DNA from: Candidatus Poribacteria bacterium
GTDB taxonomy: Bacteria > Poribacteria > WGA-4E > WGA-3G
DNA: 64,000 nucleotides
Direction: 5' to 3'
Assembly (NCBI GenBank): GCA_028824125.1
Contig: JAPPES010000036.1
Location: 15,476 to 79,475 of the forward strand
Shown: in pieces, positions 10,508 through 52,744 of the stretch
Layout: every line of letters starts with the position of its first letter
How positions within the stretch are numbered: position 1 is the stretch's first letter
Translations under genes and position numbers: made by a program
Notes under the pieces: generated by a model
Seen by the model: only the letters and a program-made list of their open reading frames with translations
Databases searched by the model: none
Told to the model about the DNA's origin: nothing

Positions 10508-10595
10508 ATCATATTTTCCCTAACGAATTATATAGCAGATTTGCGGTTAAGATACACTGTATAACCTAATGCTTTGTCAACATATTATTATTATA

Positions 10596-10676
10596 GGTCG
10601 CGATTCGGAGATCGCTCCTACCGATGGGCTTGAAAGTAGGCGGGAACTTCGATTCCCGCCTACTTTCAAGCCCATC
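10596..10676. repeat. intergenic repeat (family C) with a 23 bp-stem palindrome
   Basis: A gtcgcgattcggagatcgctcctac module is followed by the perfect palindrome gatgggcttgaaagtaggcgggaacttcgattcccgcctactttcaagcccatc. The module recurs at 43881..43905. Confidence 0.55.
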
Positions 10677-10728
10677 AATAGCATTTGACACAGCACTAAG
10701 TTGTCACACATAGTAACAAAATCTGTCC

Positions 10729-10810
10729 GAAGATTAATTTATTAATTCGGTAATTTTTGTCCGCACGAGGCGCGGATACCCTACTGCTGGCGAGGTTTCC
10801 GAACCTCGCC
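10729..10810. repeat. family B repeat copy (inverted orientation)
   Basis: The gaagattaatttattaattcggtaattt segment and the ggcgaggtttccgaacctcgcc hairpin are shared with 1443..1615. Confidence 0.5.
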
Positions 10811-10879
10811 ACATTTCTGATTCATTCTTCCAAACGAAAAATCGTTCTTTCCTCCAAAAATTCCAAATTTTTCTGAAAA

Positions 10880-10912
10880 TATGCAATTTTGCACCACAAA
10901 ATCGCGTCTATA
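10880..10912 (+). promoter_or_regulatory. candidate ECF-type promoter (TGCAA-N16-CGCGTCTA) upstream of the sigma-fusion gene
   Basis: A CGCGTC element lies 40 nt upstream of the ATG. The same element is conserved upstream of all four paralogous sigma-fusion genes. Confidence 0.4.
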
Positions 10913-10947
10913 CTAATCAAAAGACCAATTTGCTATTGAGGTATCAG

Positions 10948-13920
10948 ATGATATACGATGATGCGAACTTGATTCAACGAACCTTAGAAGGGGATCAACA
11001 AGCGTTTGCAGAACTTGTGGAAAAATACCAAAAACAGGTCCACGCATTAGCGTGGCAGAAGATCGGTGATTTTCACATTGCCCAAGAGATTACACAGGAT
11101 ACGTTCCTTACGGCATATCACAAGCTCACGACGCTCAAAGACCCTAATCGTTTTGCGGGATGGCTCTATGTGATTGCGAACCGCAAATGCATCGCGTGGC
11201 ACCGAAAGAAGTCCCCACAACCACAATCTTTAGAAGCGATGAACCCGATTGAATTAGAGGAGGTATATTATTCAGTGTATATGACTCAAAAACGCGAAGA
11301 AGCAGCAAATCAAAAACGACGTGAAGTGGTGCAGAAGTTGCTCAGTAAGCTGCAAGAGAGTGAACGCACAGTTGTCAATCTGTATTACATCGCAGAAATG
11401 ACATGTGAAGATATTGGCAAATTTTTAGGCGTATCTCCAAATACCGTCCGCAGCCGACTTCACCGCGCACGCAACCGTTTAAGGAAGGAAGAAACGATGA
11501 TTAAGGAAAACTTAAGTAGCTTCCAACTGCCGACACAATTGACGGAAAACATCATGAAAGAGATTTCACACATCAACCCTGCTGCACCGTCCGGTAGCAA
11601 ACCTTTACTACCATGGGCAATTGCTGCTTCCACGTTAGCAGTTGTGTTGCTTATGCTCGGTTTTGGAAACCACCAGTACCTAACGCGTTTTCAGAAACCT
11701 TATAGTTTTGACGCTGCCACTGAAATGACGGTTGACATCATTGACGCACCAATAGTCGTGAACCTTGAGTCCAAACCTGATGTGCAGACGCAAATCGGAA
11801 GTTTTATTGCATTAGACGAACTCAATAATTCTGAACAACAACCTAATAATGCTTCTGCAGCGATTGCAGAAGCACAAGGAGACGAAATAGTGGAAGATTA
11901 CACAAAATGGGAATTGCCGAAAGAAGCGAAAGCGCGTTTTGGCAAAGGTGGGATTAATGTGCTTCGATTTTCACCAGATGGTAGACAACTCGCGGTAGGT
12001 AGTAGTATAGGTACTTGGCTTTATGATGTGAAAACGGGGAAAGAACTGTCTATGTTCCCCGGTAAATGCAAATTCATCACATTCTCTCCAGATGGCCGCT
12101 TCCTTGCGAATATTGTTACCGGGAAGGTAACCCAGTTGTGGGAAGTAGCTACCGGGCAGAAAGTATTATTCAATGATAGTTTACCGAAAGCCTCAGTATT
12201 GCGATTCTCTGAAGACGGTAAAACACTTTATGCTTTGAGTGCCGAGGGAGATTCAATCAGTCAGTTAGATGTTAAAACAGGAAAAGGGAGTGTAAAGCAT
12301 ACTGAAGAGCAAACAAGCGGGGAGTCTTTAGTTCTTTTTGCGCTCACACATGATAAATTTGCAGTCGGAACAGAAACTAAGATTGAATTGTGGGACACAA
12401 CGACCGGCAAAATACTGTCTACACTCAAGGGAAATATGTCTCTTTTAACCTTGGAATTTTCACCTGATGGCACACGTGTCGCGAGTGCAGGTAAGAGTAG
12501 CGATAACACAGTCACATTACAATTATGGGATACCGAAAGTAAGGAGTCAACTCTCCTCCATAAACACAAAAGGTGGGTCAACGCGTTAGCATTCTCTCCT
12601 GACGGAAAAATGCTGGCAAGCGGCGGGACTGATAAGACAGTGCAGTTGTGGGATTCCGCCACCGGTGAGCCTCTTACCACTTTCACAGGTCATAGCAGCG
12701 GCATCAATGCTTTAACATTTTCACCAGATAATCGCACACTTGCCAGTGGGAGTGCAGATGGCACAGTCCGGTTTTGGAATATTAAGACGGGAGATCCATT
12801 ACCCACCCGCATCTACCAACACACAATGGAGGTGGAAGCAGTGACTTTCTTTAAAGATAACGCCACGCTTGCAAGTGTCGCGTATGATGGGGTCGTTAGC
12901 TTGTGGGATGTGAAAACATTACAAAAAATCGATACCAAAACATTACGAAAAACTGATTTCTACCATAAAGAAGATCAAGATAGAGAATACCAAGATTGGT
13001 TATCGGCTGCAGCGTTTTCACCTGATGGGACAAAGATCGTCAGTGCTGGTGTAAAAGGTAACAGACTCTTCTCAGATTACGCTATGGCTGAGTATACAGA
13101 GGATCAATTGGTTCGTCTGAGTGATGTTAGGACAGGCCATGAATTGCAGACTTTAGCTAAGGAAGGAGGTTCCTCATTCGTGACTTTTTCACCTGATGGA
13201 AAAACGGTGGCATTCGCCAATTTTGGTAAGATTCGCGTATGGAATACGGAGACAGATGAGACTTTTGATATATCTCTCGATATGTTATCTCTCGATATAT
13301 CTCACTTAGATCAAAATGATATTGACAAGTTATCTGACCAACGTAAGTCAGAAATCAGTGCACTTAAGCCTGGTATCAGTGCTTTGGTTTTTTCACCGGA
13401 CGGTGAAAAACTTATCAGTGGAACCCATGGCGGAAAGGCCCAGATGTGGGATGTGAAAACGGGAGTTCCGTTAGCACGCCTTTTTGAAGGGAAGGAACCG
13501 ATAGTAGAAGGCATTCCCCCTAATATTCATATCACCTATCAGGAACATATTCGAACATTGGCATTCTCACCAAATGGGAATTTGATTGCTATAGCAAATA
13601 ACAAACGAACCCATTTGCTACGTTTGTTGGCAGGCCATAAACATTCCCTTCTTAAGGAAATTCCGCATAGTGCCTATGCGTTAGTGTTTTCACCAAATAA
13701 TACTTTGCTTGTTATTGGACTTAGAAACGGTGCAATTGAGCTATGGGATGTTGAAACTTGGGACAAACTTACCACACTCGATGGGCATTCAGGAGCAGTA
13801 GGAACGTTGGTGTTCTCACCCGATGGCAAAACACTCGTGAGTACAGGGCAAGATGGCACAATTCTTTTGTGGGATTGGGATGAGGTTCTAAAGGGTTCCA
13901 ACCGAGAGAAAAATAAGTAA
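10948..13920 (+). CDS. ECF sigma factor domain - single TM helix - WD40 beta-propeller fusion protein
   Basis: The N-terminus has sigma-70 region 2 (HALAWQKIGDFHIAQEITQDTFL...FAGWLYVIANRKC) and region 4 (ERTVVNLYYIAEMTCEDIGKFLGVSPNTVRSRLHRARNRL). A hydrophobic helix (LLPWAIAASTLAVVLLMLGF) follows. After that come many WD repeats (LWDTTTGK, LWDSATGE, LWDVKT...). The ATG at 10948 was chosen by alignment to the paralog N-termini (MIYDDANLIQRTLEGD), with GAGGT as RBS. Confidence 0.8.
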   Translation: MIYDDANLIQRTLEGDQQAFAELVEKYQKQVHALAWQKIGDFHIAQEITQDTFLTAYHKLTTLKDPNRFAGWLYVIANRKCIAWHRKKSPQPQSLEAMNPIELEEVYYSVYMTQKREEAANQKRREVVQKLLSKLQESERTVVNLYYIAEMTCEDIGKFLGVSPNTVRSRLHRARNRLRKEETMIKENLSSFQLPTQLTENIMKEISHINPAAPSGSKPLLPWAIAASTLAVVLLMLGFGNHQYLTRFQKPYSFDAATEMTVDIIDAPIVVNLESKPDVQTQIGSFIALDELNNSEQQPNNASAAIAEAQGDEIVEDYTKWELPKEAKARFGKGGINVLRFSPDGRQLAVGSSIGTWLYDVKTGKELSMFPGKCKFITFSPDGRFLANIVTGKVTQLWEVATGQKVLFNDSLPKASVLRFSEDGKTLYALSAEGDSISQLDVKTGKGSVKHTEEQTSGESLVLFALTHDKFAVGTETKIELWDTTTGKILSTLKGNMSLLTLEFSPDGTRVASAGKSSDNTVTLQLWDTESKESTLLHKHKRWVNALAFSPDGKMLASGGTDKTVQLWDSATGEPLTTFTGHSSGINALTFSPDNRTLASGSADGTVRFWNIKTGDPLPTRIYQHTMEVEAVTFFKDNATLASVAYDGVVSLWDVKTLQKIDTKTLRKTDFYHKEDQDREYQDWLSAAAFSPDGTKIVSAGVKGNRLFSDYAMAEYTEDQLVRLSDVRTGHELQTLAKEGGSSFVTFSPDGKTVAFANFGKIRVWNTETDETFDISLDMLSLDISHLDQNDIDKLSDQRKSEISALKPGISALVFSPDGEKLISGTHGGKAQMWDVKTGVPLARLFEGKEPIVEGIPPNIHITYQEHIRTLAFSPNGNLIAIANNKRTHLLRLLAGHKHSLLKEIPHSAYALVFSPNNTLLVIGLRNGAIELWDVETWDKLTTLDGHSGAVGTLVFSPDGKTLVSTGQDGTILLWDWDEVLKGSNREKNK

Positions 13921-16473: not shown

Positions 16474-16519
16474 TTCTAAAGTCTATCATAGTTATAACCT
16501 TAGGAGGGGATATATTTCA

Positions 16520-20326: not shown

Positions 20327-20499
20327 ATAATTATTTTGCACATCAACACAGACAGGGACAGGCGCCATGTGCCGCTTGATTCATAGAAATGCTGTTTAAT
20401 CGCAATTCATTGCGCCTCTTTGAACTTGTGGACGGCACACGGCGTGTGCCTACTACCTTTAAGCGCATATTTAAATCGGAATTATTTATGCACACCCCT
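20327..20499. repeat. MITE-like element between convergent genes
   Basis: 19 bp terminal inverted repeats (gggtgtgcataattatttt / aattatttatgcacacccc) flank a segment containing the ggcacacggcgtgtgcc palindrome, the same palindrome as at 10482. The right arm overlaps the stop codon of the minus-strand sigma-fusion gene. Confidence 0.55.
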
Positions 20500-23400
20500 C
20501 ACTTAAGTTGGGTTGCGTCAAGCGTAATTTCCCATAACAGCAACGTGTCATCTCTACTTCCGCTTACGAGCGTTTTTCCATCCGGACTAAACGCGACATT
20601 CGTAACCTTGTCTGTATGCCCCACAAGGACAAGGATTTGTTGGATTGGACTTGTCTGCGTATTATACAGATAGATGGTGTTATCCGCGTTTCCACTTGCC
20701 AGTATTTTTCCATCTGGACTGAACGCCACGCTTAAAACTTCATTCAGATGCTCTACGGTTTTGAGGAGTTCCGCTGTTTGCACATCCCACACACGGATAG
20801 TGCCATCATGGCTCCCGCTTGTGAGTGTTTTTCCATCCGGACTGAACGCCACACTAAAGACAACACCCGTATGTCCTGTAAAGGTTTTCAGAAGTTCACT
20901 TGTCTGCACATCCCATAAACGGACGGTCGTATCTTTACTCCCACTTGCGAGCGTTTTTCCATCCGGACTGAACGCCACGCTCATAATCCAGTCGGTATGC
21001 CCTGAGAAAGTTTCGCGGAGTTCACCTGTCTGCACATCATACAAATGGAGGGTTTTATCCCAACTTGCACTTGCCAGGGTGTTACCATCTGGACTGAACG
21101 CTAAACTTGTGACAGTGTCTTTATGTCCTGTGAGTGTTTTGCGGGGTTTGCCAGTCTGGGCATCCCATAGACGGATAGCGCGAGCATAACCGCTGCTTGC
21201 CAGTGTTTTATTGTCGAAACTGAACGCTAAGCACGTGATCCCCGATTCACGTTGATCTTTAAGTGTCCGGTGAAGTGCGCCTGTCTGTGCATCCCATACA
21301 CGGATGATGTCATCATCAATAGAATTTACCAACATTTTTCCATCCGGGCTGAACACCACGCTTAAAACTTCGTTCATATACCCTTTAAGCGTTTTTTGAC
21401 GTTTGCCAGTTTGCGTATCCCACACGCGAATAGTCGTATCATAACTCCCAGTAGCGAGTGTTTTTCCATCCGGACTGAATACCACGTTAAGGACATCGTG
21501 CGTATGTCCTATAAGGATTCGGCGGCGTTCACCTGTTTGTGCATCCCATAAACGGACAGTGCCTTCATTCATTGCACTTGCCAGCGTTTTTCCATCCGGA
21601 CTGAACGCCATTTCATAGACAACGTCCCTTTCTTGTCCTTTGAGCGTTTTTTGGAGTTTTCCTGTCTGTACGTTCCACAAACGGATGGGGGTATCCCAAC
21701 CCCAAGCCCAAGTAGCGAGTGTTTTTCCATCCGGACTGAACGCCATTTCCAAAATCTCCTCCGTATGCTCAAGGTCAAAGGTTTTTCGGACTTCGCCTGT
21801 CTGCGTATCCCACAATCGGATAGAATTATCTCTACTTGCACTTGCCAACGTAGTGCCATCCCCACTGAGCCAAATACTAAAAATCCTATCTGTATGCCCC
21901 TCAAGAGTTGTATGGCTTTTGCCTGTCTGCGTAGCCCACAGTCGTATTGTGTTATTTCTACTGGCACTTGCCAGCATTTTGCCATCCCCACTAAAGACCA
22001 CGTTCGTGATCAGGGACATATTGTCTGTCATCGTCCGAAGATGTGTGCTGGTGCGCGTATCCCACAAGCGTATGCTGCCATCATCACTCCCACTTGCCAA
22101 TATGTTTCCATTTGGATTGAATGCTATGCTCTGGACCCAGTCCGTATGTTCTGTTAGCAGGTCAAGTTCTTTTCCGCTGTCTGAATCATAGATCCACACG
22201 CCAATTGAACTTGCAACAGCGAGCTGCTTACCATTCGGGGAATACGCAATTTTATTTATCCCTCCTTTACCAAGACGGACTTTAGCACCTTCGGGTAAGT
22301 GCCATTGCTGTGAATCTGGAGCATCTTTATCCGAGACCTCCTGCACAGCCACATTGTTCTTATTCTGCACATGAGAACTTGCAGGCTGCGTCTGGAAATT
22401 CGGTTGAGTTTCGAGGTCACCCACTGTGCGCGAGTGACCGACACTGTAATCTAAAACTAATGTATCAGCAGATAAATCTAAACGAAGCAACTTACTCACA
22501 TCGGTATTTAGCTGACACTGTTTCGTGAGAAATACGTCTTTGAATAGGACATTCTCTCCATTCTGTTTTTCCGAAGATTCTTTTGGAACAATAGACTTCT
22601 CAATTCTCTTAGGAAACCAGACATCTGGCAAGTATTCGTGATACTCAATTTTTCGGGTATTGATATAGGTTACACCCGCTTTGAAGGGACTCCATCCCAG
22701 CGGATCATCTGGTTCAATGTACTCTCTTTCTGATTTAACCAAACGGAAACCTTTGTCATGTGAAATCCAAAGTTTATAGTGCTGAGGAGATATTTCGTGA
22801 TCTCCAATGGTCCGAGCAGGTTTTGTTAGACGAATAACGGTTGTCTTTTCGCCATCCAATACCTCGCTTCCGATAATTTCACTTTCATGTTTTTCAAGCA
22901 ATTGCCAAAGCGGTTGCGATAGATAGGTATTGTCTGATACATTATTTGGAAAGGTGAGCCATAACCTCGGATCTTGGTCAACAGGCATGATCGCCCAATG
23001 CGGTCGAACAGCATATCCAACATTGTGTTTATAAACTTCCACCATTGTCTCTCCTACAAAAAGGACAAAGTAGGTTTTATCTTTCTCAATGACTCTGTAG
23101 CTGTTCTGTAACTCGCCTTTGACAATGCGCGCATCGTCAGCAATTTCAATGCCTACCTGTTTGAACGCTTGTTGGATCTTCTTTAGGACTGTAATCTCCT
23201 TGTTCAGTTTAATCTCAGCTTTGAAAAGAAGATTATCTGGTGAAGATACCTCCCAGTGTTGTTTTCCATCCCAATACTGAATTAGACCGAAACCTCCTGC
23301 TCCTCCATCTACCCGAACTTTCTCACCTTCAAATGTCAATTTATATTCATTTTTTTTGATCTTCGGCTCTATATTACGTTCAATGCTCAAATTACCTGGT

Positions 23401-24428
23401 GGAATTGGATTTCCACTAATCTTATAATTTCTATGACGTTCAATGATGAAATCACCAGTTACGGAGGTAACAGCATTATCGTAGTGCTTTATCTTAGCGA
23501 TAATCGTGTCTAAGTCAAGCGAAGCGGCGTCATCGGTTTGTTTGCCAGCTCCATTGTTCTTACCCGATGCATCGGGACTTTCAAGCTGCGTTCGTACATC
23601 CGGTTTTACATTAAGATTCTCCACAATAGGTACATCAATGAGTTCAACTACCATCTCAGCTTGTGCATCCAAACTATACGGTTTCTGGAAACGTACCAAG
23701 TATTGACTACTGATACCAAGCATCAATACAATCAATATTAAACTTGATGCCCCAATGACCCATGGTACCAAGGGTTTACCACCAGAAGGCGCGGCAGGTT
23801 TAAGTCGTGCGACTTCTCGCATAATATTATCGGTTAGGTTCGGTGAGATTTGGTAATTCTCTAAAGCTTCTCTTATCATTGTTTCCTCCTTTTGTAAACG
23901 TTGTCTGGCACGGTAAAGCCGATTCTTAATCGCACTTACCGATACACCTAAAAACTTGCTTATCTCTTCATACGTCATTCCCCCGAGGTAGTAGAGCGTG
24001 ATGACCGTGCGGTCACTCTCTTGTAGTTTTGCAAGCAACTTTTTAACGACTTCACGCTGTGCTTCTACTGATGCTCGTTCGTTTTCCGCAATGACATAAT
24101 TGGAATAAGTTGCCTTTTCCAACTCTGCATCGCAGGTGTGTTCCAAGGACTGTGTTCGCATACGTTTCTGACGAAGCCATGCCTTGCAACGGTTCGACGC
24201 TATCACATAGAGCCAACTTGCAAAAGACTGTGATTCCTTCAGCGTTGATAGTTTCTGATGCGCTTTCAGGAATGTTTCCTGTGTGATGTCCTCAGCAATG
24301 TGGAAATCTCCAATTTTCCGCCACGCTAACGCGTGAACCGACTTCTGATATTTTCTTACAAGCGCGGAGAACGCAGTATCATCACCATCAAGGATACGTT
24401 GGATGAGTTCAACATCAGCATTTTTCAT
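20499..24428 (-). CDS. ECF sigma factor domain - TM helix - ~400 aa middle domain - double WD40 propeller fusion protein (1309 aa)
   Basis: The N-terminus is MKNADVELIQRILDGDDTAF, with sigma region 2 (HALAWRKIGDFHIAEDITQETFL) and region 4 (DRTVITLYYLGGMTYEEISKFLGVSVSAIKNRLYRARQRL). The TM helix is LVPWVIGASSLILIVLMLGI. The C-terminus carries about 14 WD repeats. Confidence 0.8.
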   Translation of the reverse strand: MKNADVELIQRILDGDDTAFSALVRKYQKSVHALAWRKIGDFHIAEDITQETFLKAHQKLSTLKESQSFASWLYVIASNRCKAWLRQKRMRTQSLEHTCDAELEKATYSNYVIAENERASVEAQREVVKKLLAKLQESDRTVITLYYLGGMTYEEISKFLGVSVSAIKNRLYRARQRLQKEETMIREALENYQISPNLTDNIMREVARLKPAAPSGGKPLVPWVIGASSLILIVLMLGISSQYLVRFQKPYSLDAQAEMVVELIDVPIVENLNVKPDVRTQLESPDASGKNNGAGKQTDDAASLDLDTIIAKIKHYDNAVTSVTGDFIIERHRNYKISGNPIPPGNLSIERNIEPKIKKNEYKLTFEGEKVRVDGGAGGFGLIQYWDGKQHWEVSSPDNLLFKAEIKLNKEITVLKKIQQAFKQVGIEIADDARIVKGELQNSYRVIEKDKTYFVLFVGETMVEVYKHNVGYAVRPHWAIMPVDQDPRLWLTFPNNVSDNTYLSQPLWQLLEKHESEIIGSEVLDGEKTTVIRLTKPARTIGDHEISPQHYKLWISHDKGFRLVKSEREYIEPDDPLGWSPFKAGVTYINTRKIEYHEYLPDVWFPKRIEKSIVPKESSEKQNGENVLFKDVFLTKQCQLNTDVSKLLRLDLSADTLVLDYSVGHSRTVGDLETQPNFQTQPASSHVQNKNNVAVQEVSDKDAPDSQQWHLPEGAKVRLGKGGINKIAYSPNGKQLAVASSIGVWIYDSDSGKELDLLTEHTDWVQSIAFNPNGNILASGSDDGSIRLWDTRTSTHLRTMTDNMSLITNVVFSGDGKMLASASRNNTIRLWATQTGKSHTTLEGHTDRIFSIWLSGDGTTLASASRDNSIRLWDTQTGEVRKTFDLEHTEEILEMAFSPDGKTLATWAWGWDTPIRLWNVQTGKLQKTLKGQERDVVYEMAFSPDGKTLASAMNEGTVRLWDAQTGERRRILIGHTHDVLNVVFSPDGKTLATGSYDTTIRVWDTQTGKRQKTLKGYMNEVLSVVFSPDGKMLVNSIDDDIIRVWDAQTGALHRTLKDQRESGITCLAFSFDNKTLASSGYARAIRLWDAQTGKPRKTLTGHKDTVTSLAFSPDGNTLASASWDKTLHLYDVQTGELRETFSGHTDWIMSVAFSPDGKTLASGSKDTTVRLWDVQTSELLKTFTGHTGVVFSVAFSPDGKTLTSGSHDGTIRVWDVQTAELLKTVEHLNEVLSVAFSPDGKILASGNADNTIYLYNTQTSPIQQILVLVGHTDKVTNVAFSPDGKTLVSGSRDDTLLLWEITLDATQLK

Positions 24429-24469: not shown

Positions 24470-24520
24470 CATATAGTGACGCGACTTGAAGCGAAAAAGT
24501 CTCAAGTTTTTTCAAAAAAG
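24470..24520 (-). promoter_or_regulatory. candidate ECF-type promoter element (CGCGTCACTAT) upstream of 20499..24428
   Basis: The rc sequence aagtCGCGTCACtatatg lies about 45 nt upstream of the ATG. The motif is shared with the other three paralog upstream regions. Confidence 0.4.
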
Positions 24521-24624
24521 AGGAAAGAGGGGATAATGTTCAATTATTATACCATTATCCTCTCTTTTTTCATATTTGTATAAATACTACGTTGTTAGTG
24601 TCTTCAACATTTAGGATAGAGTGT

Positions 24625-24762
24625 TATAGTGAAATCTGTAATTATTTACACACGACGGTAGGTTCGGTTTCCTAACCGAACCTGTGTTTATCCAGCCTCA
24701 TAGATGCGGTTAGAAACCGCATCTACCAGGGAGTGTGCATATATTTTTAGATACCACTATAA
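24625..24762. repeat. MITE family A copy (terminal inverted repeat TATAGTGAAATC ... GATACCACTATA)
   Basis: Terminal inverted repeats flank internal hairpins (ggtaggttcggtttcctaaccgaacc and gcggttagaaaccgc). Paralogous copies are at 47121..47248, 50795..50908 and 52745..52889. Confidence 0.65.
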
Positions 24763-24812
24763 AGGAGATAGGAAGGGATTGGTTGCATTGGATACCTATT
24801 AGATAAGGTAGA

Positions 24813-27800
24813 TTATTGTTCAAGATTATAATGAAGCATACCGTTGTTTTGTGTACCTACGTATAACGTGCTCCCATCAACCACAAGAGAAGTTACACCA
24901 TCCGGAATCTCTGAAATAATCTTTTCCCATACACCGCTTTCCAAACGATAGATACCTGTCCCTTTGGTAACACCATAAACCGTTGTGCCATCAGCAGCCA
25001 AGCGTTCCATAATGAGATTCGTTCCCTCTGCATCGGTGATTGCACGCCATTTTATTCCATTATCTGACACAGTTACACCAGCGTCTGTTGCTACATACAC
25101 CGTGGAACCCGCAAACATAATCTCTTTGAAAGTTTCAACAGGAAATGGCAGCGCTGAGGTAAGATCGATCCAACTCCGATTATTTCCTCTATCATAAGAT
25201 ACAACGAGATGACCGTCCCGTTTGCCGACGTAGACGGTGTCCCCTGAAACAGCAAGTTTGAGCTCTTTTTCTATTATTTTCCGAGACAATCTAACGGTTT
25301 CTTCTTGTCCGGTGTCGTACCATTCAGTATCACCAGGTTCCCATCGGAGGAGTTTAAAGTTGTATTCTAAATAAAACGTATCGCCACTGACTGCAAACGG
25401 TCCCTTTAACCCAGATTCGTAAAGAGGGTCTTGGTATAATCGGCGAAAGTTTTTGTGTATGGAACCCATTTGAGCCAACTGTTTAAAGAACTGGTTTGCA
25501 CCTACAGAACTTTCTTGCAACTGTTCAAAGTAGGGCTTATCTGATCCTTTAGCAGGTTGTCGATAATGCAGTAAGTTGTATAGTGACGATGATCTAAAGA
25601 CTGGCATGCCTTTAATTGGTACTAACGTATTGCGATCCTCAGAAATCCGATACAGACTCATGAGGGCATCACTGGTAGGTCCTCGACTTTTCGCATATAG
25701 CACGCCATCAGACTCTGCTATCCGAGTAAAAGAAGGTATATGTTCTTGAATTTGTATTTCTGGGTTCACCACACGCCAAGATTGTCCCTTATCACTGGAT
25801 TTAAATACCCATTTACTTCCCATACTTCCAGAGAACATTGCATAGATGTAGTTAGATATGTTTTGTTCTTTATTCGTCTTGACACAGATTAGGTCGATAA
25901 TACTGCTTTCCAACCCTGTATAAAACCTTGTCCACGATAAACCTCCATCAATTGAGCGATATATTCCGGATTCCCCTTGTAAATATAATGTGTTTTCGTT
26001 TAACACTACTGCATTGTGAACACTATAAGGCATCAGTGAAATATCGCTGGTTTTTTCAAGTGTCCATGTGTTACCGTTGTCAATAGAGCGAATCACCGCA
26101 GCACCACGCCACCCTATTAATAATAATGTGTTTTTCACTGCGACCAGAGTTGCATGAGGTTCTTTGTCAAACGGTTCAGGCCCCATAATGGGCAATGCGT
26201 TTGTTGGTGTAATATTCGTCCATGACTGTCCTTTATCAGTTGATCGAAAAAGCCACCAGGTCCGCTCCTGCGGCCCAACATTTTTCCAATCCCATTCTCC
26301 CAATACATAAAGATGGTTTTCAGTTCCCACAAACGAAACGATTTTTTTAGCTTCATTTACCGGAAATTGCAAACGTTGCCAACTACCACCGTCAAGGTGA
26401 TATAGACCTGTGCTTGTTGCAGCAAATAGCGTGTTTTGAATTACCTTCAATGTGCTCACTTCCCCTGTCAATCCCTCGCCAACAACATTCCAGGTTTTTC
26501 CAATATTCTCAGATACGAAAATCTCATGTTCAAGGGCAAGATAAAACCTATCGTCCAACACCTCAAATCCGTTAACCCATCCTGCTGGACATTTACCAAA
26601 TGAAACCCAGGTTTCTCCATCATCCAATGAACCATATAGTTCATTGGAGTATTGACGACCATCAAGAGTGAGAACAATATAGATCATATCGTTTGACTTC
26701 ACCATAGAGACTGCATCATACAGAGTATCTGGTAGTAGTGAACTAATATCACATACAGGTTGCCATTCAGTTCCATCAACTGGTAGTTTATACAGTATAT
26801 CTTCCCAGCCTTCATCATATACAATATAGATTTCTCCCTCGGGTGTAGGGAGTAACGTCATCAATTCTCCTGAACCTACTGGACTGTTTTCCTGAATCCA
26901 CTGCTGTTTCGGGGCAGAAACGCCTTTTTCATCCGACTGCACCGCAGCCAGTAATACCTCATCCGGTTTCTGACCATCATTATTGTTTTTGCCAAGTGTA
27001 TTTGCACTCCCAAGTTGATTTTGGATATCTGGTTCTACCTCAAGATTTTGTACAATAGGAGCATTAATAAGCTCAACTTTCATCTCAGTTTGCGCATCCA
27101 AACTATAGGGTTGTTGAAAACGGACTAAGTATTGACTCCCTATACCAAGCATTAACACAATCAAAACTACACTGGATGCAGCGGCTATCCACGGCACAAG
27201 CGGTTTGCTGACGGAAGGCGTAGGTTTAAGTCGTGCGACTTCTCGCATAATGTTATCAGTTAGGTTCGGTGAAATTTGGAAATGGTCGAGTGCTTCTCTA
27301 ATCATCGTTTCCTCCTTTTGTAAACGTTGTCTGGCACGTCTCAGACGACTTTTTATTGTGCTTCCCGATACGCCTAAAAATCGGCTAATCTCCTCAACCG
27401 TCATCTCACCGAGATAATGGAGCGTCATTACCGTACGTTCGCTTTCTTTTAATTTCGCGAGCAGCGTTTTGACCACTTCACGTTGTGTCTCCGCAGCAGT
27501 TGTTGCGCGATCTGCTGTGACATGTTGTGAATAAGCATCTTTCGGTGTCATCGTTGTTTCTGCGTCCTCCAACGGTTGTGTCCGTATCCGTTTTTTGCGG
27601 ATCCATGTGTTGCATAGGTTTGTCGTAATCACGTAGAGCCACCCAGAAAACTGATTCGGATCTTTCAGCGTATGGAGTCTCTGATACACTTTCAGGAAAG
27701 TGTCTTGGGTAATGTCCTCGGCGATGTGGAAATCCCCAACTTTTCGCCATGCCAGCGCGTGAACCGGCTTCTGATACTTTTTTACCAACTCAGTGAAAGC

Positions 27801-27854
27801 GGTTTCATCGTCTGCAAGAATTCGGTGAATAAGTGCAACATCGTCTTTTTTCAT
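24813..27854 (-). CDS. ECF sigma factor domain - TM helix - BNR/Asp-box repeat beta-propeller fusion protein (1013 aa)
   Basis: Sigma regions 2 and 4 are present (HALAWRKVGDFHIAEDITQDTFL; ERTVMTLHYLGEMTVEEISRFLGVSGSTIKSRLRRARQRL). The TM helix is LVPWIAAASSVVLIVLMLGI. The C-terminus carries multiple SxDxGxTW motifs (SLDDGETW, STDKGQSW, SIDNGNTW, SIDGGLSW, SSDKGQSW). Confidence 0.8.
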   Translation of the reverse strand: MKKDDVALIHRILADDETAFTELVKKYQKPVHALAWRKVGDFHIAEDITQDTFLKVYQRLHTLKDPNQFSGWLYVITTNLCNTWIRKKRIRTQPLEDAETTMTPKDAYSQHVTADRATTAAETQREVVKTLLAKLKESERTVMTLHYLGEMTVEEISRFLGVSGSTIKSRLRRARQRLQKEETMIREALDHFQISPNLTDNIMREVARLKPTPSVSKPLVPWIAAASSVVLIVLMLGIGSQYLVRFQQPYSLDAQTEMKVELINAPIVQNLEVEPDIQNQLGSANTLGKNNNDGQKPDEVLLAAVQSDEKGVSAPKQQWIQENSPVGSGELMTLLPTPEGEIYIVYDEGWEDILYKLPVDGTEWQPVCDISSLLPDTLYDAVSMVKSNDMIYIVLTLDGRQYSNELYGSLDDGETWVSFGKCPAGWVNGFEVLDDRFYLALEHEIFVSENIGKTWNVVGEGLTGEVSTLKVIQNTLFAATSTGLYHLDGGSWQRLQFPVNEAKKIVSFVGTENHLYVLGEWDWKNVGPQERTWWLFRSTDKGQSWTNITPTNALPIMGPEPFDKEPHATLVAVKNTLLLIGWRGAAVIRSIDNGNTWTLEKTSDISLMPYSVHNAVVLNENTLYLQGESGIYRSIDGGLSWTRFYTGLESSIIDLICVKTNKEQNISNYIYAMFSGSMGSKWVFKSSDKGQSWRVVNPEIQIQEHIPSFTRIAESDGVLYAKSRGPTSDALMSLYRISEDRNTLVPIKGMPVFRSSSLYNLLHYRQPAKGSDKPYFEQLQESSVGANQFFKQLAQMGSIHKNFRRLYQDPLYESGLKGPFAVSGDTFYLEYNFKLLRWEPGDTEWYDTGQEETVRLSRKIIEKELKLAVSGDTVYVGKRDGHLVVSYDRGNNRSWIDLTSALPFPVETFKEIMFAGSTVYVATDAGVTVSDNGIKWRAITDAEGTNLIMERLAADGTTVYGVTKGTGIYRLESGVWEKIISEIPDGVTSLVVDGSTLYVGTQNNGMLHYNLEQ

Positions 27855-27894
27855 CAGGCGTCTCCAAAAAGTGATTACTTGATTAATAACATAT

Positions 27895-27945
27895 CAACCT
27901 ATAGTGACGCAAGTTAGGGACAAAACGGTTGCTTAATTCTGCAAA
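27895..27945 (-). promoter_or_regulatory. candidate ECF-type promoter element upstream of 24813..27854
   Basis: The rc sequence tgcagaattaaGCAACCgttttgtccctaacttGCGTCACtatagg is nearly identical to the element at 31050..31100. Confidence 0.45.
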
Positions 27946-27974
27946 AAAGAGAATTTGGAAGGGAAGAGAAAAAA

Positions 27975-28012
27975 AGAAAAAGGGCGGTATTTAGCACCGC
28001 CCAGGCAAAATA
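27975..28012 (-). terminator. Rho-independent terminator after the 28025..31012 gene
   Basis: On the minus strand, the hairpin gggcggtgctaaataccgccc is followed by ttttttcttttttt. Confidence 0.7.
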
Positions 28013-28024
28013 TAAAAACGAAAT

Positions 28025-31012
28025 TTATTCTTTTTCAAGATTATAATGAAGCATACCGTTGTTTTCTGTGCCTACGTACAAAGTGCTCCCATCAACAGCA
28101 AGAGAAGTTACGCTATCAGGTATCTCTGAGACAATCTGCTCCCAAGTGCCGCTTTCCAAGCGATGGATACCTGTCTTCTCGGTAACGCCATAAACCGTTG
28201 TGCCGTCAATAGCCAAATGTTCCATGATGAGGTGTGATCCTACTGTGTCTGTTATAGCATGCCAATGTTTTCCATTATCTGATGTAGCAACACCTACGTC
28301 TGTTGCTACATACACCGTGGAACCAGCAAACAAGATCTCTTTGAAATTTTTAAGGGGTGTGGGAAACATAAAGTCCACGGGAATATCTTTCCAATTATTT
28401 CCGGCATCAAGTGATTGAACAAACCGCCCATCCCGTTTGCCAACGTAGACAGTGTTGCCTGATACCGCAAGTTTGAGGTCTTTCCGCGCTATGTCCGAAG
28501 CCAACTCAACAGTTTCTTCCACACCGGTGTCGGACCACTCAGTGTCACCGTGTTTCCATTTAAAGAGTTTAAAGTTGTACTCCATATAGAACGTGTCGCC
28601 ACTAACAGAAAAGGGCCCGCGGAGTCCAGCTTGGATAAGTTGAGGTAGCCATCTTAGATTGCCTACCTCAAACTGTTTGAAAAATTGGATTGCCCCTGAC
28701 GAATTTACTTGCAACTGTGCAAGAGTTAGTTTATCTTGTAATTCGAATGGCAATACTCTTTTTTGAGATAATAGTTGATACAACTCACTGGAGTTAAAAA
28801 TAGGTATACTTTCAATCGGCTTTAGTGTATTATCACTTTCAGATACACTATAGATAAGTGTTTTTTCATCAGAATCATCTATACCTTTGGCATGAAGAAC
28901 ACTACCAGATTTAACTATATGGGTGATGTGCGGTGGCTCGTTACCATGGGGTGTTGTTATTGGTTTTCCCATTTGAACGAAATCCCAAGACTTGCCTCTG
29001 TCAATAGTTTTTACAATTTTGCCATCAACTATTCCGTAGAGGGCTGCTGAAGTGTTTAGTCTTTTATCGAATTCTTGATAGAGAATTAGGCTATCCGCTT
29101 GATTTCCTCGGCTGAAATTCACTATGTGCCATGACTTGCCACTATCAGTGGAACGATGGAGACCATCGTCACTACCGACATAAATAGTATTTGTGTTAAT
29201 TACCACAGCAGGATTTTTACTATCCATTTGCGGTGAGGTTCCTGCTAATTGTGGCGGCATCCATGTATTTCCGCCATTGGTGGAGCGTACCATACCTTTT
29301 TCCATTACTAAGAGAGTATCACCGGCAGCAATCAGTTTAGCCCCAGCGATGAAATCTTTTACTGCCCAAGCGTTTGTTGGAGTTATATCTTCCCACGAAT
29401 TCCCAAGGTCACTTGATCGAAATATTCCCCAACTACGCTGCAGTCCACGGGACACTTTTCGAGGGTCAAGAACATCCCAGCTGAATCCAGCTAAAACATA
29501 AAACTTATCTTCAGTTGCTGCAACTGATTGAATTCCTTCAACAGACATTGGAAATTCCAAGCGTTTCCAACCGTCATCGCTGTAACGGTAAAGACCATTA
29601 CTTGTTCCAGCAAAAAGGGTGTTTTGGATATTGACTAAAGCATTAATTCCTGTCAATCCATCATTAATACTCTTCCAAGTTTTGCCTATATCTTCCGAAC
29701 GAAAAATATCGTTTTCAAAAGCCATGTAAAACGCTTGTTCTGTTAGAATTAATTCTATGGAATTCCAATATTTTTCGCTATCCCATGAGTAAAGTAAGTT
29801 CCATGATTTGCCATCATCTTTTGAAGCGAAAAGTTCACTTGATTGTGTATAATACAGTGTATCTTCCCACTTCACGATAAGGAGTTGGACTCCTATGCTG
29901 GAATGTGGCAATGTCCAAATGTCAAAGATGTGTTGCCACGTTTCCGTTTTTGCAGGCAATTTGTATATCTCTCCCTTAGTATAAGTATAGAGATCGCCTT
30001 CGGGTGTTGCAAGGAAACTATTCACAGTGCTCCCTGTAAGAGGAGTAGACTGAATCCACTCCTGTTTGGGAACAGAAACATCTTCTCCTTCCGCCTGTGC
30101 GGTGGCTAATAATATTTCATCGGGTTTCTGTCCATTGTTATCGCTTTCACCAAGTACGTTTGAATTCCCAAGTTCACGACGTACATCCGGTTTCACTTCA
30201 AGATTTTGCACAATAGGGGCGTCAACGAGTTCAACGGTCATTTCAGTCTGTGCATCTAAACTATAAGGTTGCTGAAAACGCGCGAAGTATTTGCTGCCTA
30301 ACCCAAGCATTAACACAATCAAAACAACACTGGATGCAGCGGCTATCCATGGCACAAGCGGTTTGCTGACGGAAGGCGTAGGTTTAAGTCGTGCGATTTC
30401 CCGCATGATGTTATCAGTCAAGTTAGGTGAAATTTGGAAATGGTCGAGTGCCTCTCTAATCATTGTTTCCTCCTTTTGTAAGCGGTGCCGCGCACGTTGT
30501 AGTCGGCTCTTAATTGTTCCTGCAGAAACCCCTAAAAACTTGCTAATCTCTTCGACTGTCATCTCACCGAGGTAGTGGAGTGTCATCACCGTGCGTTCGC
30601 TCTCCTTCAACTTTGCGAGGAGTCTCTTAACCACTTCGCGTTGTGCTTCAACAGCGGTTTGAGCACGTTGTTCTACGACATGTCGGGAATAAGCATCTCT
30701 TTGTCCCATAGTTGTCTCTGCGTCCTCCAACGGTTGTGTCCGTATCCGTTTTTTGCGGAGCCAAGCGTAGCATCGGCGCGTCGCAATCACATAGAGCCAC
30801 CCAGAAAACTGGTTTGGATCTTTCAGGGTGTGAAGTCTCTGATATACTTTCAGGAAGGTATCCTGTGTAATCTCTTCGGCGATGTGGAAATCCCCAACTT
30901 TTCGCCAAGCCAGCGCGTGAACCGGCTTTTGATATTTTGTCACAAGTTCAACGAAAGCGTTTTCATCACCAGCAAGAATCTGTTGGATCAGTTCAACATC
31001 GTTGTTTTTCAT
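28025..31012 (-). CDS. ECF sigma factor domain - TM helix - BNR/Asp-box repeat beta-propeller fusion protein (995 aa)
   Basis: This is a paralog of 24813..27854 with the same N-terminal sigma and TM architecture. Its BNR motifs include SKDDGKSW, SEDIGKTW, SSDLGNSW, STNGGNTW, STDSGKSW and TIDRGKSW. Confidence 0.8.
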   Translation of the reverse strand: MKNNDVELIQQILAGDENAFVELVTKYQKPVHALAWRKVGDFHIAEEITQDTFLKVYQRLHTLKDPNQFSGWLYVIATRRCYAWLRKKRIRTQPLEDAETTMGQRDAYSRHVVEQRAQTAVEAQREVVKRLLAKLKESERTVMTLHYLGEMTVEEISKFLGVSAGTIKSRLQRARHRLQKEETMIREALDHFQISPNLTDNIMREIARLKPTPSVSKPLVPWIAAASSVVLIVLMLGLGSKYFARFQQPYSLDAQTEMTVELVDAPIVQNLEVKPDVRRELGNSNVLGESDNNGQKPDEILLATAQAEGEDVSVPKQEWIQSTPLTGSTVNSFLATPEGDLYTYTKGEIYKLPAKTETWQHIFDIWTLPHSSIGVQLLIVKWEDTLYYTQSSELFASKDDGKSWNLLYSWDSEKYWNSIELILTEQAFYMAFENDIFRSEDIGKTWKSINDGLTGINALVNIQNTLFAGTSNGLYRYSDDGWKRLEFPMSVEGIQSVAATEDKFYVLAGFSWDVLDPRKVSRGLQRSWGIFRSSDLGNSWEDITPTNAWAVKDFIAGAKLIAAGDTLLVMEKGMVRSTNGGNTWMPPQLAGTSPQMDSKNPAVVINTNTIYVGSDDGLHRSTDSGKSWHIVNFSRGNQADSLILYQEFDKRLNTSAALYGIVDGKIVKTIDRGKSWDFVQMGKPITTPHGNEPPHITHIVKSGSVLHAKGIDDSDEKTLIYSVSESDNTLKPIESIPIFNSSELYQLLSQKRVLPFELQDKLTLAQLQVNSSGAIQFFKQFEVGNLRWLPQLIQAGLRGPFSVSGDTFYMEYNFKLFKWKHGDTEWSDTGVEETVELASDIARKDLKLAVSGNTVYVGKRDGRFVQSLDAGNNWKDIPVDFMFPTPLKNFKEILFAGSTVYVATDVGVATSDNGKHWHAITDTVGSHLIMEHLAIDGTTVYGVTEKTGIHRLESGTWEQIVSEIPDSVTSLAVDGSTLYVGTENNGMLHYNLEKE

Positions 31013-31049
31013 CAGGTGCCTCCCGAAAGGATAGGTTCAATTTGTCATA

Positions 31050-31100
31050 CTGAACCCTTGTGACGCGACTTAGGAGGAAAACGGTTGCATAATTCTGCAT
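31050..31100 (-). promoter_or_regulatory. candidate ECF-type promoter element upstream of 28025..31012
   Basis: The rc sequence tgcagaattatGCAACCgttttcctcctaagtCGCGTCACaagg is conserved with the other sigma-fusion upstream regions. Confidence 0.45.
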
Positions 31101-31675
31101 GTTTATGAATTGGATGGTTGGAAACAGTGAATACTATTTTACCAAATCAGGTGGGTTTGTCAAGATGTGAGGGTTGAAAGGCAGGGTTATTTAGTTTTAA
31201 AAACCCTCAGTTATCAAGTTAACTGCAAGTAAGGGTTTTGAAGCATAATATTTTATCTTATCCGCTATGATGGCGTGGCAGAAAGTTTTCTGTGTCAAAA
31301 GTGCGTCCGGGGAATGCCATACGCGCATTCATACCGTTGATTTGGTTGTGATGACTTTCCCACTCACATCAAAGTTCTTGAGGATCTCAGTTGAGATCGG
31401 TATTTCGTTGGTTTTGCCACTGACACCTTGTTGTGTCCGTGTAACCTCTAACTCATGAGAAACAACGGAGAGTAAATGGCTTATTGTCGCATCACATTTT
31501 CGGGACAAGGTGATGTCTTGTGTGTACAACCGAGTGCTTGGACCAGGTCGGGTTGAGATCGTGCCCACTTTGCAGTGGAGGTATATCTTTATGTCCGGAC
31601 ATAAAACCAATGATGACAAGTCCGAGGATTGAGTGCAACGGGTGTCGTTTTCCTTATGTCCTGATTATACAATCT

Positions 31676-33130
31676 TTATCCCTTCACAACCCCAATCGGG
31701 CGGAGGCGCGCCACGCGGCGTGAAAGCCCTGCTTCGTCAACGACACGGACGACTTCATCAACATCTTTGTAAGCCTCTGAAACCTCTTCCTGTAGCGTTC
31801 GCTTACCTTCCGCACGGACGAAAATACCTCTTTCTTCAAGGTCTTTCTGGATAGAACGCCCCTCGGTTAAAGCGATCGCTTTTCGCCGTGAAAGCATCCT
31901 ACCCGCACCGTGGCAGGTTGTGCCCCATGTCTCTGCCATAGCACCCGGATCTCCGACAAGTACATAAGAGGCAGTCCCCATATCGCCTGGAATAAGAACC
32001 GGTTGCCCTACCTTCTGATATTTTTCGGGGATTTCCGGATGCCCAGCAGGAAAAGCGCGTGTTGCGCCTTTGCGATGGATAAAAAGTTCGCGTTCCTCTC
32101 CATCAACTTCGTGTTTTTCAAACTTTCCGATGTTATGTGAAACATCATATACCAGTTCCAATCCGAGTTCATCCTCAGTTGTATCAAAATACTTCATAAA
32201 GGTCTGCCGAACAAGGTGCATTATACATTGCCGATTATTCCATGCATAATTTGCACTGCACGCCATAGCAGTGATGTAATCTTGTCCTTCGGGTGAGCTA
32301 ATTGGCGCGGAAGCAAGTTGCCTATCAGGCAGGTTAATTCCATATCTTTCTGCGACTTGAACCCAGCTTTTGACATGCTCATCACAAATCTGATAACCGA
32401 AACCACGTGAACCTGTATGAATCATGACACAGACATTACCTTCACTTAAACCCATCGCATCAGCTGCTTCCCTGTAAAAGATACGATCAACGATTTGTAC
32501 CTCAAGAAAATGATTGCCAGAACCGAGTGTGCCGAGTTGATTTTTTCCGCGTTCTAAAGCACGTTGGCTTGCAGCGTCAGCGTTGGCATTTTGAAGATAC
32601 CCGGTGGCTTCAGTGAATTGTAGGTCATGTGGATGTCCGTATTCACGTTCGATTGCCCAACGCGCGCCCTGTTCCAACATGTAGCGCTCTTCATTGAGTG
32701 AGAGGCGTATCTTGCCTTTGGACCCAACACCGCAAGGAACATTATCAAAGAGTTCGCCAATGAGTCCTTTGGTCTTGCCTTCCAATTGTTTGACATCAAG
32801 GTTAGTACGGATCAACCGCACACCGCAATTAATATCGTATCCGATGCCACCAGGAGAAACGACTCCATCTGCTTTCGGATCCGTAGCAGCGACACCACCG
32901 ATGACGAAACCGTAACCCCAATGCAAATCGGGCATTGCAAGCGAGTGTTTAACAATGCCAGGAAGATGTGCAACGTTTGCTACTTGCTGTAACGCCTCAT
33001 CGCTTTTCGCTTGGTTTAAGAGTTTTTCGTTAGCGTAGACAATTCCGTCAACACGCATCCCTTTCATGTAACTCTTCGGGATCCGCCAACGGTATTCATC
33101 AATTTTTTGGAGTGTTATGTTTTGTGCCAT
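31676..33130 (-). CDS. rtcB: RNA-splicing ligase RtcB (3'-phosphate/5'-hydroxyl RNA ligase)
   Basis: The 484 aa ORF contains MPDLHWGYGFVIGGV, IGYDINCGVRL and the NHAG...GSRG metal/GTP-site motifs typical of RtcB. Confidence 0.85.
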   Translation of the reverse strand: MAQNITLQKIDEYRWRIPKSYMKGMRVDGIVYANEKLLNQAKSDEALQQVANVAHLPGIVKHSLAMPDLHWGYGFVIGGVAATDPKADGVVSPGGIGYDINCGVRLIRTNLDVKQLEGKTKGLIGELFDNVPCGVGSKGKIRLSLNEERYMLEQGARWAIEREYGHPHDLQFTEATGYLQNANADAASQRALERGKNQLGTLGSGNHFLEVQIVDRIFYREAADAMGLSEGNVCVMIHTGSRGFGYQICDEHVKSWVQVAERYGINLPDRQLASAPISSPEGQDYITAMACSANYAWNNRQCIMHLVRQTFMKYFDTTEDELGLELVYDVSHNIGKFEKHEVDGEERELFIHRKGATRAFPAGHPEIPEKYQKVGQPVLIPGDMGTASYVLVGDPGAMAETWGTTCHGAGRMLSRRKAIALTEGRSIQKDLEERGIFVRAEGKRTLQEEVSEAYKDVDEVVRVVDEAGLSRRVARLRPIGVVKG

Positions 33131-50671: not shown

Positions 50672-50794
50672 ACAAGAAGTTCTCACTTTCCATTGAAAAG
50701 ATTGTGGTATAGTAGACAAAAGTCGGTTTATCATAACCGACTCTTACGCATAGAAGTATAACATGTTGTAATTTTTACATCAAGAAAAAACAAT

Positions 50795-52703: not shown

Positions 52704-52744
52704 TATGACCACCCAAATAACAAACTACTCCGTATTTTCGTAAG

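Follow-up and report, generated by a model that had tools for sequence, protein, structure and literature searches.

The stretch of DNA considered here, hereafter the window, comprises 64,000 nucleotides (nt) of a Candidatus Poribacteria genome assembly (GCA_028824125.1, contig JAPPES010000036.1, positions 15,476 to 79,475 of the forward strand), and contains four genes whose products join a sigma factor of the extracytoplasmic function (ECF) type to a transmembrane (TM) helix and a beta-propeller, each gene being preceded by a bipartite sequence element that is the subject of this analysis. Gene D (10948..13920, forward strand) encodes a protein of 990 amino acids (aa) with sigma-2 and sigma-4 domains, a TM helix at aa 218-242 and a WD40 beta-propeller. 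The remaining three genes lie on the reverse strand: A (20499..24428), specifying an ECF sigma domain, one TM helix and WD40 beta-propellers (1309 aa), and B (24813..27854, 1013 aa) and C (28025..31012, 995 aa), in which an ECF sigma domain and one TM helix are followed by a beta-propeller of the BNR/sortilin type. In all four proteins a single hydrophobic helix, within aa 215-248, lies C-terminal to sigma-4 and precedes the propeller, which is identified by Pfam as WD40 in A and D and as BNR/sortilin/PQQ-like in B and C, and the linker of approximately 35 aa between sigma-4 and the membrane is conserved and cytoplasmic. Protein D shares 51-53% identity with A, B and C over the first 280 aa; B and C are tandem paralogues, with 85% identity between their sigma domains.

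The products of genes A to D are bona fide ECF (group 4) sigma factors. The Pfam models Sigma70_r2 and Sigma70_r4_2 match B and C directly, all four proteins can be aligned over aa 1-182, and the NCBIfam model TIGR02937 returns 97.7-114.6 bits for all four, against a cut-off of 42.9. Bacillus subtilis SigW is both the nearest solved structure and the top specific NCBIfam model for these sigma domains, which are closest to SigW yet lie outside the SigW equivalogs, scoring 108-113 bits on NF007223 (cut-off 209 bits) and 97-103 bits on TIGR02948 (cut-off 243 bits). Within aa 180-340 no Pfam family, anti-sigma domains (FecR-like, zf-HC2 or RskA) included, gave a match at E<=1 beyond noise, and no cleavage motif was recognised in the linker region of A-D. 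No other sigma gene is present in the 64-kb window; open reading frames of 170-200 aa at 52-61 kb were considered as candidates and rejected, being CDP-alcohol phosphatidyltransferase, LigT, transposase or unknowns.

By reading and aligning the four upstream regions we find, on the strand of each gene, an element of the form TG(C/A)(A/G)A(C/T), N17-18, CGTC, which ends 39-55 nt 5' of the ATG. A first-pass annotation of the window had proposed an element upstream of all four genes, some 40-65 nt from the start codon, and in both respects it was correct. Upstream of D (10872..10914, forward strand), an A/T-rich part leads into the -35 sequence TGCAAT (10882-10887), a spacer of N17 and the -10 sequence CGTC (10905-10908; CGCGTCTATA), with the cytosine of GTC situated 39 nt before the ATG at 10948. 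Upstream of A (24472..24514, reverse strand), the -35 sequence TGAGAC (24504..24499) is followed by a T-tract, N17 and a CGTC within CGCGTCAC (24483..24476). The elements of B (27900..27943) and C (31056..31099), likewise on the reverse strand, both contain TGCAGAATTA, a -35 sequence (AGCAAC at 27933..27928 in B, TGCAAC at 31089..31084 in C), a CGTTTT T-tract, a spacer of N18 and a CGTC, which lies within TGCGTCAC in B (27912..27905) and within CGCGTCAC in C (31067..31060). B and C share the T-tract GCAACCGTTTT 3' of the -35, and that of A is GAGACTTTTT. On a two-block weight matrix built from relatives (described below), the four elements score 15.3 (D), 21.3 (A), 47.4 (B) and 48.4 bits (C).

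What the four sites have in common is GCGTC, with CGTC present at every one. The 8-mer CGCGTCAC, which the first-pass annotation had attributed to all four, is exact at two of them (A and C), whereas B has TGCGTCAC and the site of D reads CGCGTCTA in full; similarly, the coordinates given for C (31060-31067) were accurate, but those for A were displaced by one nucleotide (24477-24484 instead of 24476-24483). The conserved block also extends 10 nt further 5' than the -35 originally indicated, and the -35 of A (TGAGAC) is newly assigned here. The blocks of B and C, which the first-pass annotation described as almost identical, agree at 34 of 40 positions (85%) over approximately 40 nt; third codon positions of their sigma domains agree at 65%, and the 60 nt upstream at 31/60, a value equal to alignment noise. 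Since the block is more alike than third codon positions, selection appears to have acted on the motif between these tandem paralogues. Furthermore, an intrinsic terminator after C (27982..28002, reverse strand; GGGCGGTG-loop-CACCGCCC followed by a T-run) parts C from the promoter of B, the element of which begins 39 nt downstream, and consequently B needs a promoter of its own at this point.

The two-block matrix is specific within the window, where it yields exactly four matches at a threshold of >=10 bits, all of them at A-D, whereas 20 shuffled windows yielded three (approximately 0.15 each). A relaxed pattern, AA.T.GCGTC, has six matches on both strands of the window, four of which are the A-D sites. 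The 8-mer CGCGTCAC taken alone was rejected as a significant signal, as it occurs three times in the window against 1.1 expected, the third occurrence being inside recA, whereas the positional pattern is significant. No further targets were detected in the window, given that no other matrix match reaches 10 bits and that matches to the relaxed core expression are all intragenic or antisense.

To place the element in a wider context, relatives were collected by alignment of the N-terminal region against one genome per species, which gave at least 574 matches, from which 80 loci were kept (designated here by L numbers). All of these loci, where a taxon is named in the record, derive from metagenome-assembled genomes of Candidatus Poribacteria, and one (L001) is 92% identical to D. 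A protein search returned 1506 clusters at E<=1e-10, and every named cluster is from Poribacteria. Two-block expectation-maximisation on the 200 nt upstream of 85 family genes produced the consensus TGCAGAATTATGCA(C/A)CCG, N9-10, AAGTAGCGTCAC(T/C)A(T/G)A, with 21.8 and 15.4 bits in the two blocks and an offset that is almost always 27 or 28. The motif is present at >=14 bits within 200 nt in 72 of the 83 genes with an alignable sigma domain, and in several of the remaining genes it lies further upstream, behind an inserted repeat. When these 72 sequences are anchored at the -35, information content stays at background (0.1-0.3 bits) up to position -17, rises to 1.0-2.15 bits through a block of 17 nt, continues into a T-rich start of the spacer (0.8-1.4 bits for T at +5 to +7 after the -35 core) and reaches 1.4-2.15 bits at GCGTCAC. 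The middle position of the -35 is A in 29/72 and C (GCACC) in 43/72. The block is retained in many species and between clades with no more than 50-65% protein identity, with adjacent bases at background. The GTC cytosine and the ATG are separated by one of two classes of distance, 25-31 nt or 45-57 nt, and a GGAG-type ribosome-binding site is present in 69/72.

The Poribacteria loci, 533 kb in total, contain 87 matches at >=14 bits, every one of which is on the strand of the sigma gene and approximately 80 of which lie directly 5' of a family gene or pseudogene. In 62 of 66 cases a strong -35 block has a -10 block at an offset of 27 or 28, and such co-occurrence at a fixed offset indicates that the two blocks constitute a single unit. 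Before a frameshifted pseudogene of the family (L011, 6403) the motif is decaying. Viral contigs scanned with the motif gave no matches.

Several of the collected loci carry inserted repeats. Short insertions resembling miniature inverted-repeat transposable elements, with inverted ends GGACTTACGCA...TGCGTAAGTCC, are located between promoter and start codon in L025 (~2820-2960), L050 (~2830-2970), L065 (~2770-2830), L078 (~1430-1500) and L081 (~6430-6500). A different, G/C-rich palindromic repeat (CCCCCTTATCAGGGGG) is inserted in L028 and L049, and in L049 its insertion has split and duplicated the -35 block. Members with long leaders also show, inside the predicted leader, a weakly conserved (G/A)ATG(A/C)AAC or AATCAA about 25-35 nt 5' of the ATG (31035-31025 and 24455-24447 in the window), which resembles a second -35-like hexamer without a CGTC at the proper distance.

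The element is not restricted to genes of the family. A strict form of the pattern was found at six sites in metagenome contigs, three before family genes and three before unrelated genes, the latter comprising an ABC exporter (ABC_membrane and ABC_tran) on two contigs (L083, 5530-7420; L086, 8615-10138), located downstream of a MacB/FtsX gene, and an operon of MoxR AAA+ and DUF58-VWA genes (L081, 6378-8496) beside a gene for a PQQ-propeller/EF-hand protein. The motif also precedes a stand-alone WD40 protein of 324 aa (L057, 1792-2830). The occurrence of the same element before unrelated genes marks it as a portable promoter, as opposed to a relic of duplication, and the ABC exporter, the MoxR-VWA operon and the stand-alone WD40 protein present themselves as first candidates for a regulon.

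Taken together, the comparative data strongly support the reading of the element as a real, ordinary promoter of the ECF type. Its presumed parts would be a -35 core of TG-x-(A/G)-(A/C)-(C/T) that runs directly into a T-tract, a spacer of 17-18 nt and a -10 of (G)CGTC(A), in which the GTC cytosine would be the flipped base, with sigma-4 placed on the -35 core and sigma-2 on GCGTC. The spacers of sigma-W and sigma-X promoters measure 16-17 nt. In overall design the element resembles the promoters of sigma-W, sigma-V, sigma-M and sigma-X (ECF01/ECF30-type; PMC5758882), having a bipartite structure with a TGxAAC-type -35, a T-tract and a CGTC -10 directly 5' of the sigma gene, and also in that related sigma factors have overlapping and slightly different specificities. 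The B. subtilis sigma-V and sigma-W promoters are of the form GCAAAC/TGAAAC, nTTTt, CGTC/CGTA and are autoregulatory, the sigV promoter (GCAAAC/CGTC) being one that is autoregulatory; a tGAAACnTTTt extension has also been described, and promoters of the sigma-V/W/Y type characteristically have a T-tract directly 3' of the -35 (PMC5758882). ECF sigma genes are, moreover, usually autoregulated, and the detection of conserved motifs upstream of them is a standard means of promoter prediction (PMC7826278). There are nevertheless differences from the sigma-W/V/M/X promoters: most members of the present family have ACC where AAC is expected, the spacer from AAC to CGTC measures 17 nt for A and D and 18 nt for B, C and the majority of relatives, some 10 additional conserved bases (CAGAATTA) lie upstream of the -35, and the sigma factor is fused to a TM helix and a beta-propeller instead of being paired with a separate anti-sigma gene. 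Of the AAC -35 and CGT(C) -10 that the first-pass annotation had taken as the signature of an ECF promoter, the CGTC is indeed present at all four window sites, but AAC occurs only in B and C.

The identity of the sigma factor that reads this promoter can be approached through variation within the family, since each subtype of promoter belongs to particular clades in the tree of sigma domains. A -35 core of GCACC(C/A) goes with a -10 region of GCGTCAC(A/C), GCACCC with GTGTCACTATA, GCAACC with GCGTCAC, GTAACC with GCGTCAT, G(A/T)(G/A)AC with GC(A/G)TCA, and GCAATT with G(C/T)GTCTATA. The subtype of A, TG(A/T)(G/A)ACTTTTT..GC(A/G)TCA, is common to the clade of L034, L021, L042, L047 and L060, that of D, ATGCAATT..AAT[C/T]G[C/T]GTCTATA, recurs in the orthologues L001, L014, L076, L036 and L002-4, and the promoter of C is near-identical in its orthologues L084 and L085 despite different flanks. 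Each genome carries several clades (three are present in the window), and the clades are therefore old orthologous groups whose promoters have stayed distinct across species.

Covariation between promoter positions and protein columns, measured as normalised mutual information, is specific to the domains concerned. For the -35 position with A or C (position 15), all eight of the best protein partners are columns of the sigma-4 helix-turn-helix, although sigma-4 contributes only 22 of the 100 variable columns; for position 13 four of the eight best partners are in sigma-4, as they are, more weakly, for position 17. Positions flanking the -10 (19, 20, 23 and 25) pair instead with columns of C-terminal sigma-2 and the linker. 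On a neighbour-joining tree of 143 clades, constructed from sigma-2 and the linker only, without sigma-4, four of the five A/C changes inferred for the -35 share a branch with a Ser/Gly change at residue 157, and residue 175 (Arg/Gln) is concordant with the -35 A/C in 65/72 overall. Such domain-specific covariation is as expected if each sigma factor coevolves with its own promoter, and speaks against a single master sigma. Clade-tracking subtypes and domain-specific covariation, both of them correlative, thus support self-recognition, and we consider it probable that the element is a promoter dependent on an ECF sigma and that RNA polymerase reads it with the fusion proteins' own sigma domain, i.e. 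that these genes are autoregulated. Autoregulation, which the first-pass annotation had proposed together with an ECF promoter, is hence supported indirectly, through subtypes and covariation, and the promoter itself strongly.

Alternatively, a real ECF-type promoter could be read in trans by one common sigma factor, be it a stand-alone or master ECF or a single family member, with the fusion genes as its co-regulated targets. The near-uniformity of CAGAATTA and of the GCGTCA core in clades with different sigma factors is what a single reader would impose, and family members of only 213-260 aa exist in the protein database that could be free sigma factors. However, these short proteins may be truncated gene calls, the 64-kb window is without another sigma gene, and a common reader sits poorly with clade-specific variants that are fixed across species (-35 GCACC, GCAAC, GTAAC, GARAC and GCAAT; -10 GCGTCAC, GTGTCAC, GCATCAY and GYGTCTA) and that covary with sigma-4 and sigma-2 residues of the adjacent gene. 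We therefore view a common sigma as unlikely.

The upstream half of the element raises a different question. The sequence TGCAgAATTaTGCA forms a palindromic dyad in which 12 of 14 bases are symmetric, centred near -41 if the GTC cytosine is taken as -10, and its left half, at 1.2-1.5 bits per position, equals the -35 core in conservation. Six of its seven pairs are complementary in 43-68 of the 72 sequences each, five of them in 60-68. It is consequently conceivable that this half is an operator for a dimeric transcription factor, activating (class II) or repressing the family besides or instead of being recognised by sigma-4, particularly as conservation this far 5' is unusual among ECF promoters. 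The dyad does not, however, behave as a paired operator should: position 13 changes from C to A or T without a change at position 2 in the 72 sequences, so that compensation is lacking, and the fifth pair (G5/A10) is non-complementary in 67/72. In clade D, and in part of clade B, the core persists but the left half has given way to sequence that is simply A/T-rich (TTCAAAAATA, TTTTTTATTA), which fits an UP-like element better, and the block almost never occurs without a -10 block at the fixed distance (62/66, as above). An operator is, in our estimation, slightly less probable again than a common sigma, and within the promoter read by its own sigma factor the 10 or so A/T-rich conserved bases of CAGAATTA are read as a module shared by all clades that either extends the -35 or is UP-like.

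A third possibility is that the block is transcribed from a sigma-70 promoter lying 5' of it and works in the leader as a riboswitch or other RNA structure. Some 45 nt 5' of the element of C lies a near-consensus sigma-70-like site (31136..31163, reverse strand; TTGACA-N16-TAAAAT, TG-extended, 11/12) that is kept in the orthologues L084 (TTGACA..TACAAT) and L085 (TTGACA..TAGAAT), a weaker one (24546..24573, reverse strand; ATGAAA-N16-TATAAT, TG-extended, 10/12) lies 5' of the element of A, and across the family such sites are found upstream of the element in 10 of 72 members, against 2.1 +/- 1.4 in shuffled sequences. Most members, however, are without one, RNAalifold predicts no consensus pairs in 30 diverse promoter-plus-leader sequences, and there is neither an Rfam match nor any compensatory change in the sole possible stem; the only Rfam matches at E<=1 are sub-threshold 'miRNA' hits on an unrelated perfect hairpin. 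Bipartite conservation with fixed spacing is, moreover, the expectation for recognition of DNA by protein, and we regard a leader RNA as highly improbable. The site upstream of C is a candidate basal promoter, and suggests for this gene a tandem arrangement of basal and inducible promoters. Sigma-70 and sigma-54 readings of the block itself were also tried and rejected, the former on the grounds that TTGCAG and TATAG stand 38 nt apart and TATAG is not kept in all clades, the latter (TGCAC..TTGCA) on account of wrong spacing, the missing GG and occurrence in one clade only.

Finally, that the similarity is a functionless relic of gene duplication, as might be imagined for four genes of one family that include the tandem paralogues B and C, is scarcely credible, being contradicted by conservation across clades between flanks at background and beyond that of synonymous sites, by the motif before unrelated genes and by its decay before a frameshifted pseudogene, so that the preference expressed in the first-pass annotation for function over recent duplication is upheld.

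In their architecture the fusion proteins recall two groups of known ECF sigma factors. Like ECF57 (formerly ECF01-Gob) of the Planctomycetes (PMC8999054, PMC7826278), A and D combine an ECF core with a large WD40 propeller extension, and the family is likened to ECF57, by its published description, in having many gene copies and no separate anti-sigma gene; ECF57 averages 5.3 copies per planctomycete genome (PMC7826278). ECF57 proteins possess two conserved cysteines, one each in sigma-2 and sigma-4, which are proposed to link the two domains (PMC8999054, PMC7826278). Among A-D and 79 relatives, the sigma-2 Cys is near-invariant (Cys81 in the numbering of C, in sigma-2.4; 82/83, including all four window proteins), whereas the sigma-4 Cys (Cys153 in the same numbering) is present in 55/83 and, within the window, in D only, being absent from A, B and C. 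The two families further differ in phylum and in the propellers of B and C, which are BNR/sortilin instead of WD40, and we found no published ECF57 promoter motif in the literature with which to compare ours. Similarly, the sigma/anti-sigma hybrids IutY of Pseudomonas putida (ECF243) and SCO4117 (of the actinobacterial ECF52) unite a cytoplasmic ECF sigma, a TM segment and an extracytoplasmic sensor in one polypeptide, and in such hybrids the sigma factor is activated through regulated proteolysis (PMC5411451, PMC8999054). Unlike IutY and SCO4117, the proteins studied here have no detectable FecR-like or zinc-finger anti-sigma between sigma-4 and the membrane, a beta-propeller as sensor and no TonB-dependent receptor as partner. 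A search of the literature for ECF sigma factors of Poribacteria found nothing relevant.

These comparisons allow a model to be outlined for autoregulation by the fused sigma factors. Each fusion protein would be a one-component transmembrane device, with a cytoplasmic sigma, a linker of 35 aa, a TM helix and an extracytoplasmic WD40 or BNR propeller. A signal at the propeller might release the sigma or render it active, with regulated proteolysis as the most plausible means, a step borrowed from IutY and ECF52, and the freed sigma would then amplify expression of its own gene (positive autoregulation) and drive a small regulon, including in relatives the ABC exporter and the MoxR-VWA operon. 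Transcription would start approximately 6-9 nt after GTC, giving leaders of about 20 nt or of 40-50 nt with a GGAGG ribosome-binding site at their end. Cross-activation is probable between paralogues whose promoters are nearly the same, B and C among them, and basal expression may come from the sigma-70-like promoters. In this model we infer the cognate sigma as reader, the start of transcription, proteolytic activation and cross-talk between paralogues.

Several observations weigh against this account. The canonical AAC is found in only two of the four window promoters (B and C; A has GAC and D has AAT), with ACC in 43 of the 72 relatives, and the spacer of 17-18 nt is at or past the range of 14-17 nt quoted for characterised ECF promoters (PMC5758882). 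Conservation of 10 bases preceding the -35 is unusual for ECF promoters, and these bases, being the same in clades with differing -35 cores, may be read by a common factor other than the clade-specific sigma-4. The covariation is confounded by shared ancestry and the neighbour-joining tree is uncertain, so that the independent events may number two, not four, and changes at residue 175 (Arg/Gln) share just one branch with changes in the -35. Targets other than sigma genes are few, and the sampling behind them is small and biased (six metagenome sites). Lastly, the sigma domains, which would have to reach RNA polymerase, are membrane-tethered without a recognised anti-sigma or cleavage motif.

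The surroundings of the four genes contain a number of further features. Clusters of hairpins resembling repetitive extragenic palindromes, with stems ending ..GGTTTC[C/T][G/A]AACC.., are located at 10560-10830 (5' of D) and 24680-24760 (3' of B), and a perfect 30-bp inverted repeat at 10616-10683 gives a sub-threshold plant 'miRNA' match in Rfam. Two genes between D and A (14281-20317, forward strand) encode TPR-repeat proteins of very large size (730 aa and 1283 aa); the second protein ends in a PA14-like region, and neither gene has a copy of the promoter motif. A gene for an RtcB RNA ligase occupies 31676-33130 (reverse strand), and between rtcB and C (31200-31660, reverse strand) lies a decayed remnant of an ISAs1-type transposase, with frames containing RHPLHSILGLVIIGF... 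and ...GKTNEIPISTEILKNFDVSGKVITT and a match to Pfam DDE_Tnp_1_assoc (E = 0.003) under its cut-off. Further along, the reverse strand encodes a proteasomal-type AAA ATPase (48872-50734; Prot_ATP_ID_OB domains, Mpa/ARC-like) and a LigT 2'-5' RNA ligase-like protein (52110-52712).

The arrangement described here is a well-supported instance of textbook ECF design in an undescribed and very large family, confined to Poribacteria among named database entries, and in kind the finding is what ECF biology predicts. Differences from known ECF promoters lie in the long conserved upstream half and the size of the family, and the clade-specific promoter code is a further feature of note. The clade variants, together with the sigma-4 residues that covary with them (157 Ser/Gly with the -35 A/C), form a data set provided by nature on the divergence of ECF specificity following duplication, which would also be useful in the design of orthogonal sigma/promoter pairs. 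Poribacteria are uncultured symbionts of sponges and corals, and consequently their regulatory logic can currently be read from sequence alone. A concrete promoter code for an uncharacterised ECF family is usable for regulon definition in complete Poribacteria genomes, and the motif could guide the search for start sites in holobiont metatranscriptomes and help to check whether the 'eukaryote-like' WD40 and BNR propellers serve as signal inputs. A more far-reaching proposal, which we offer as speculation and hold to be rather unlikely, is that Poribacteria may maintain a large natural set of ECF sigma factors, each one-component and tethered to the membrane (574 or more genomic matches and 1506 clusters), as clade-wise, semi-orthogonal sigma/promoter pairs, the common module TGCAGAATTA, part of the 14-bp dyad near -41, being read by a shared factor that would place dozens of eukaryote-like propeller sensors in these sponge and coral symbionts under family-wide master control.

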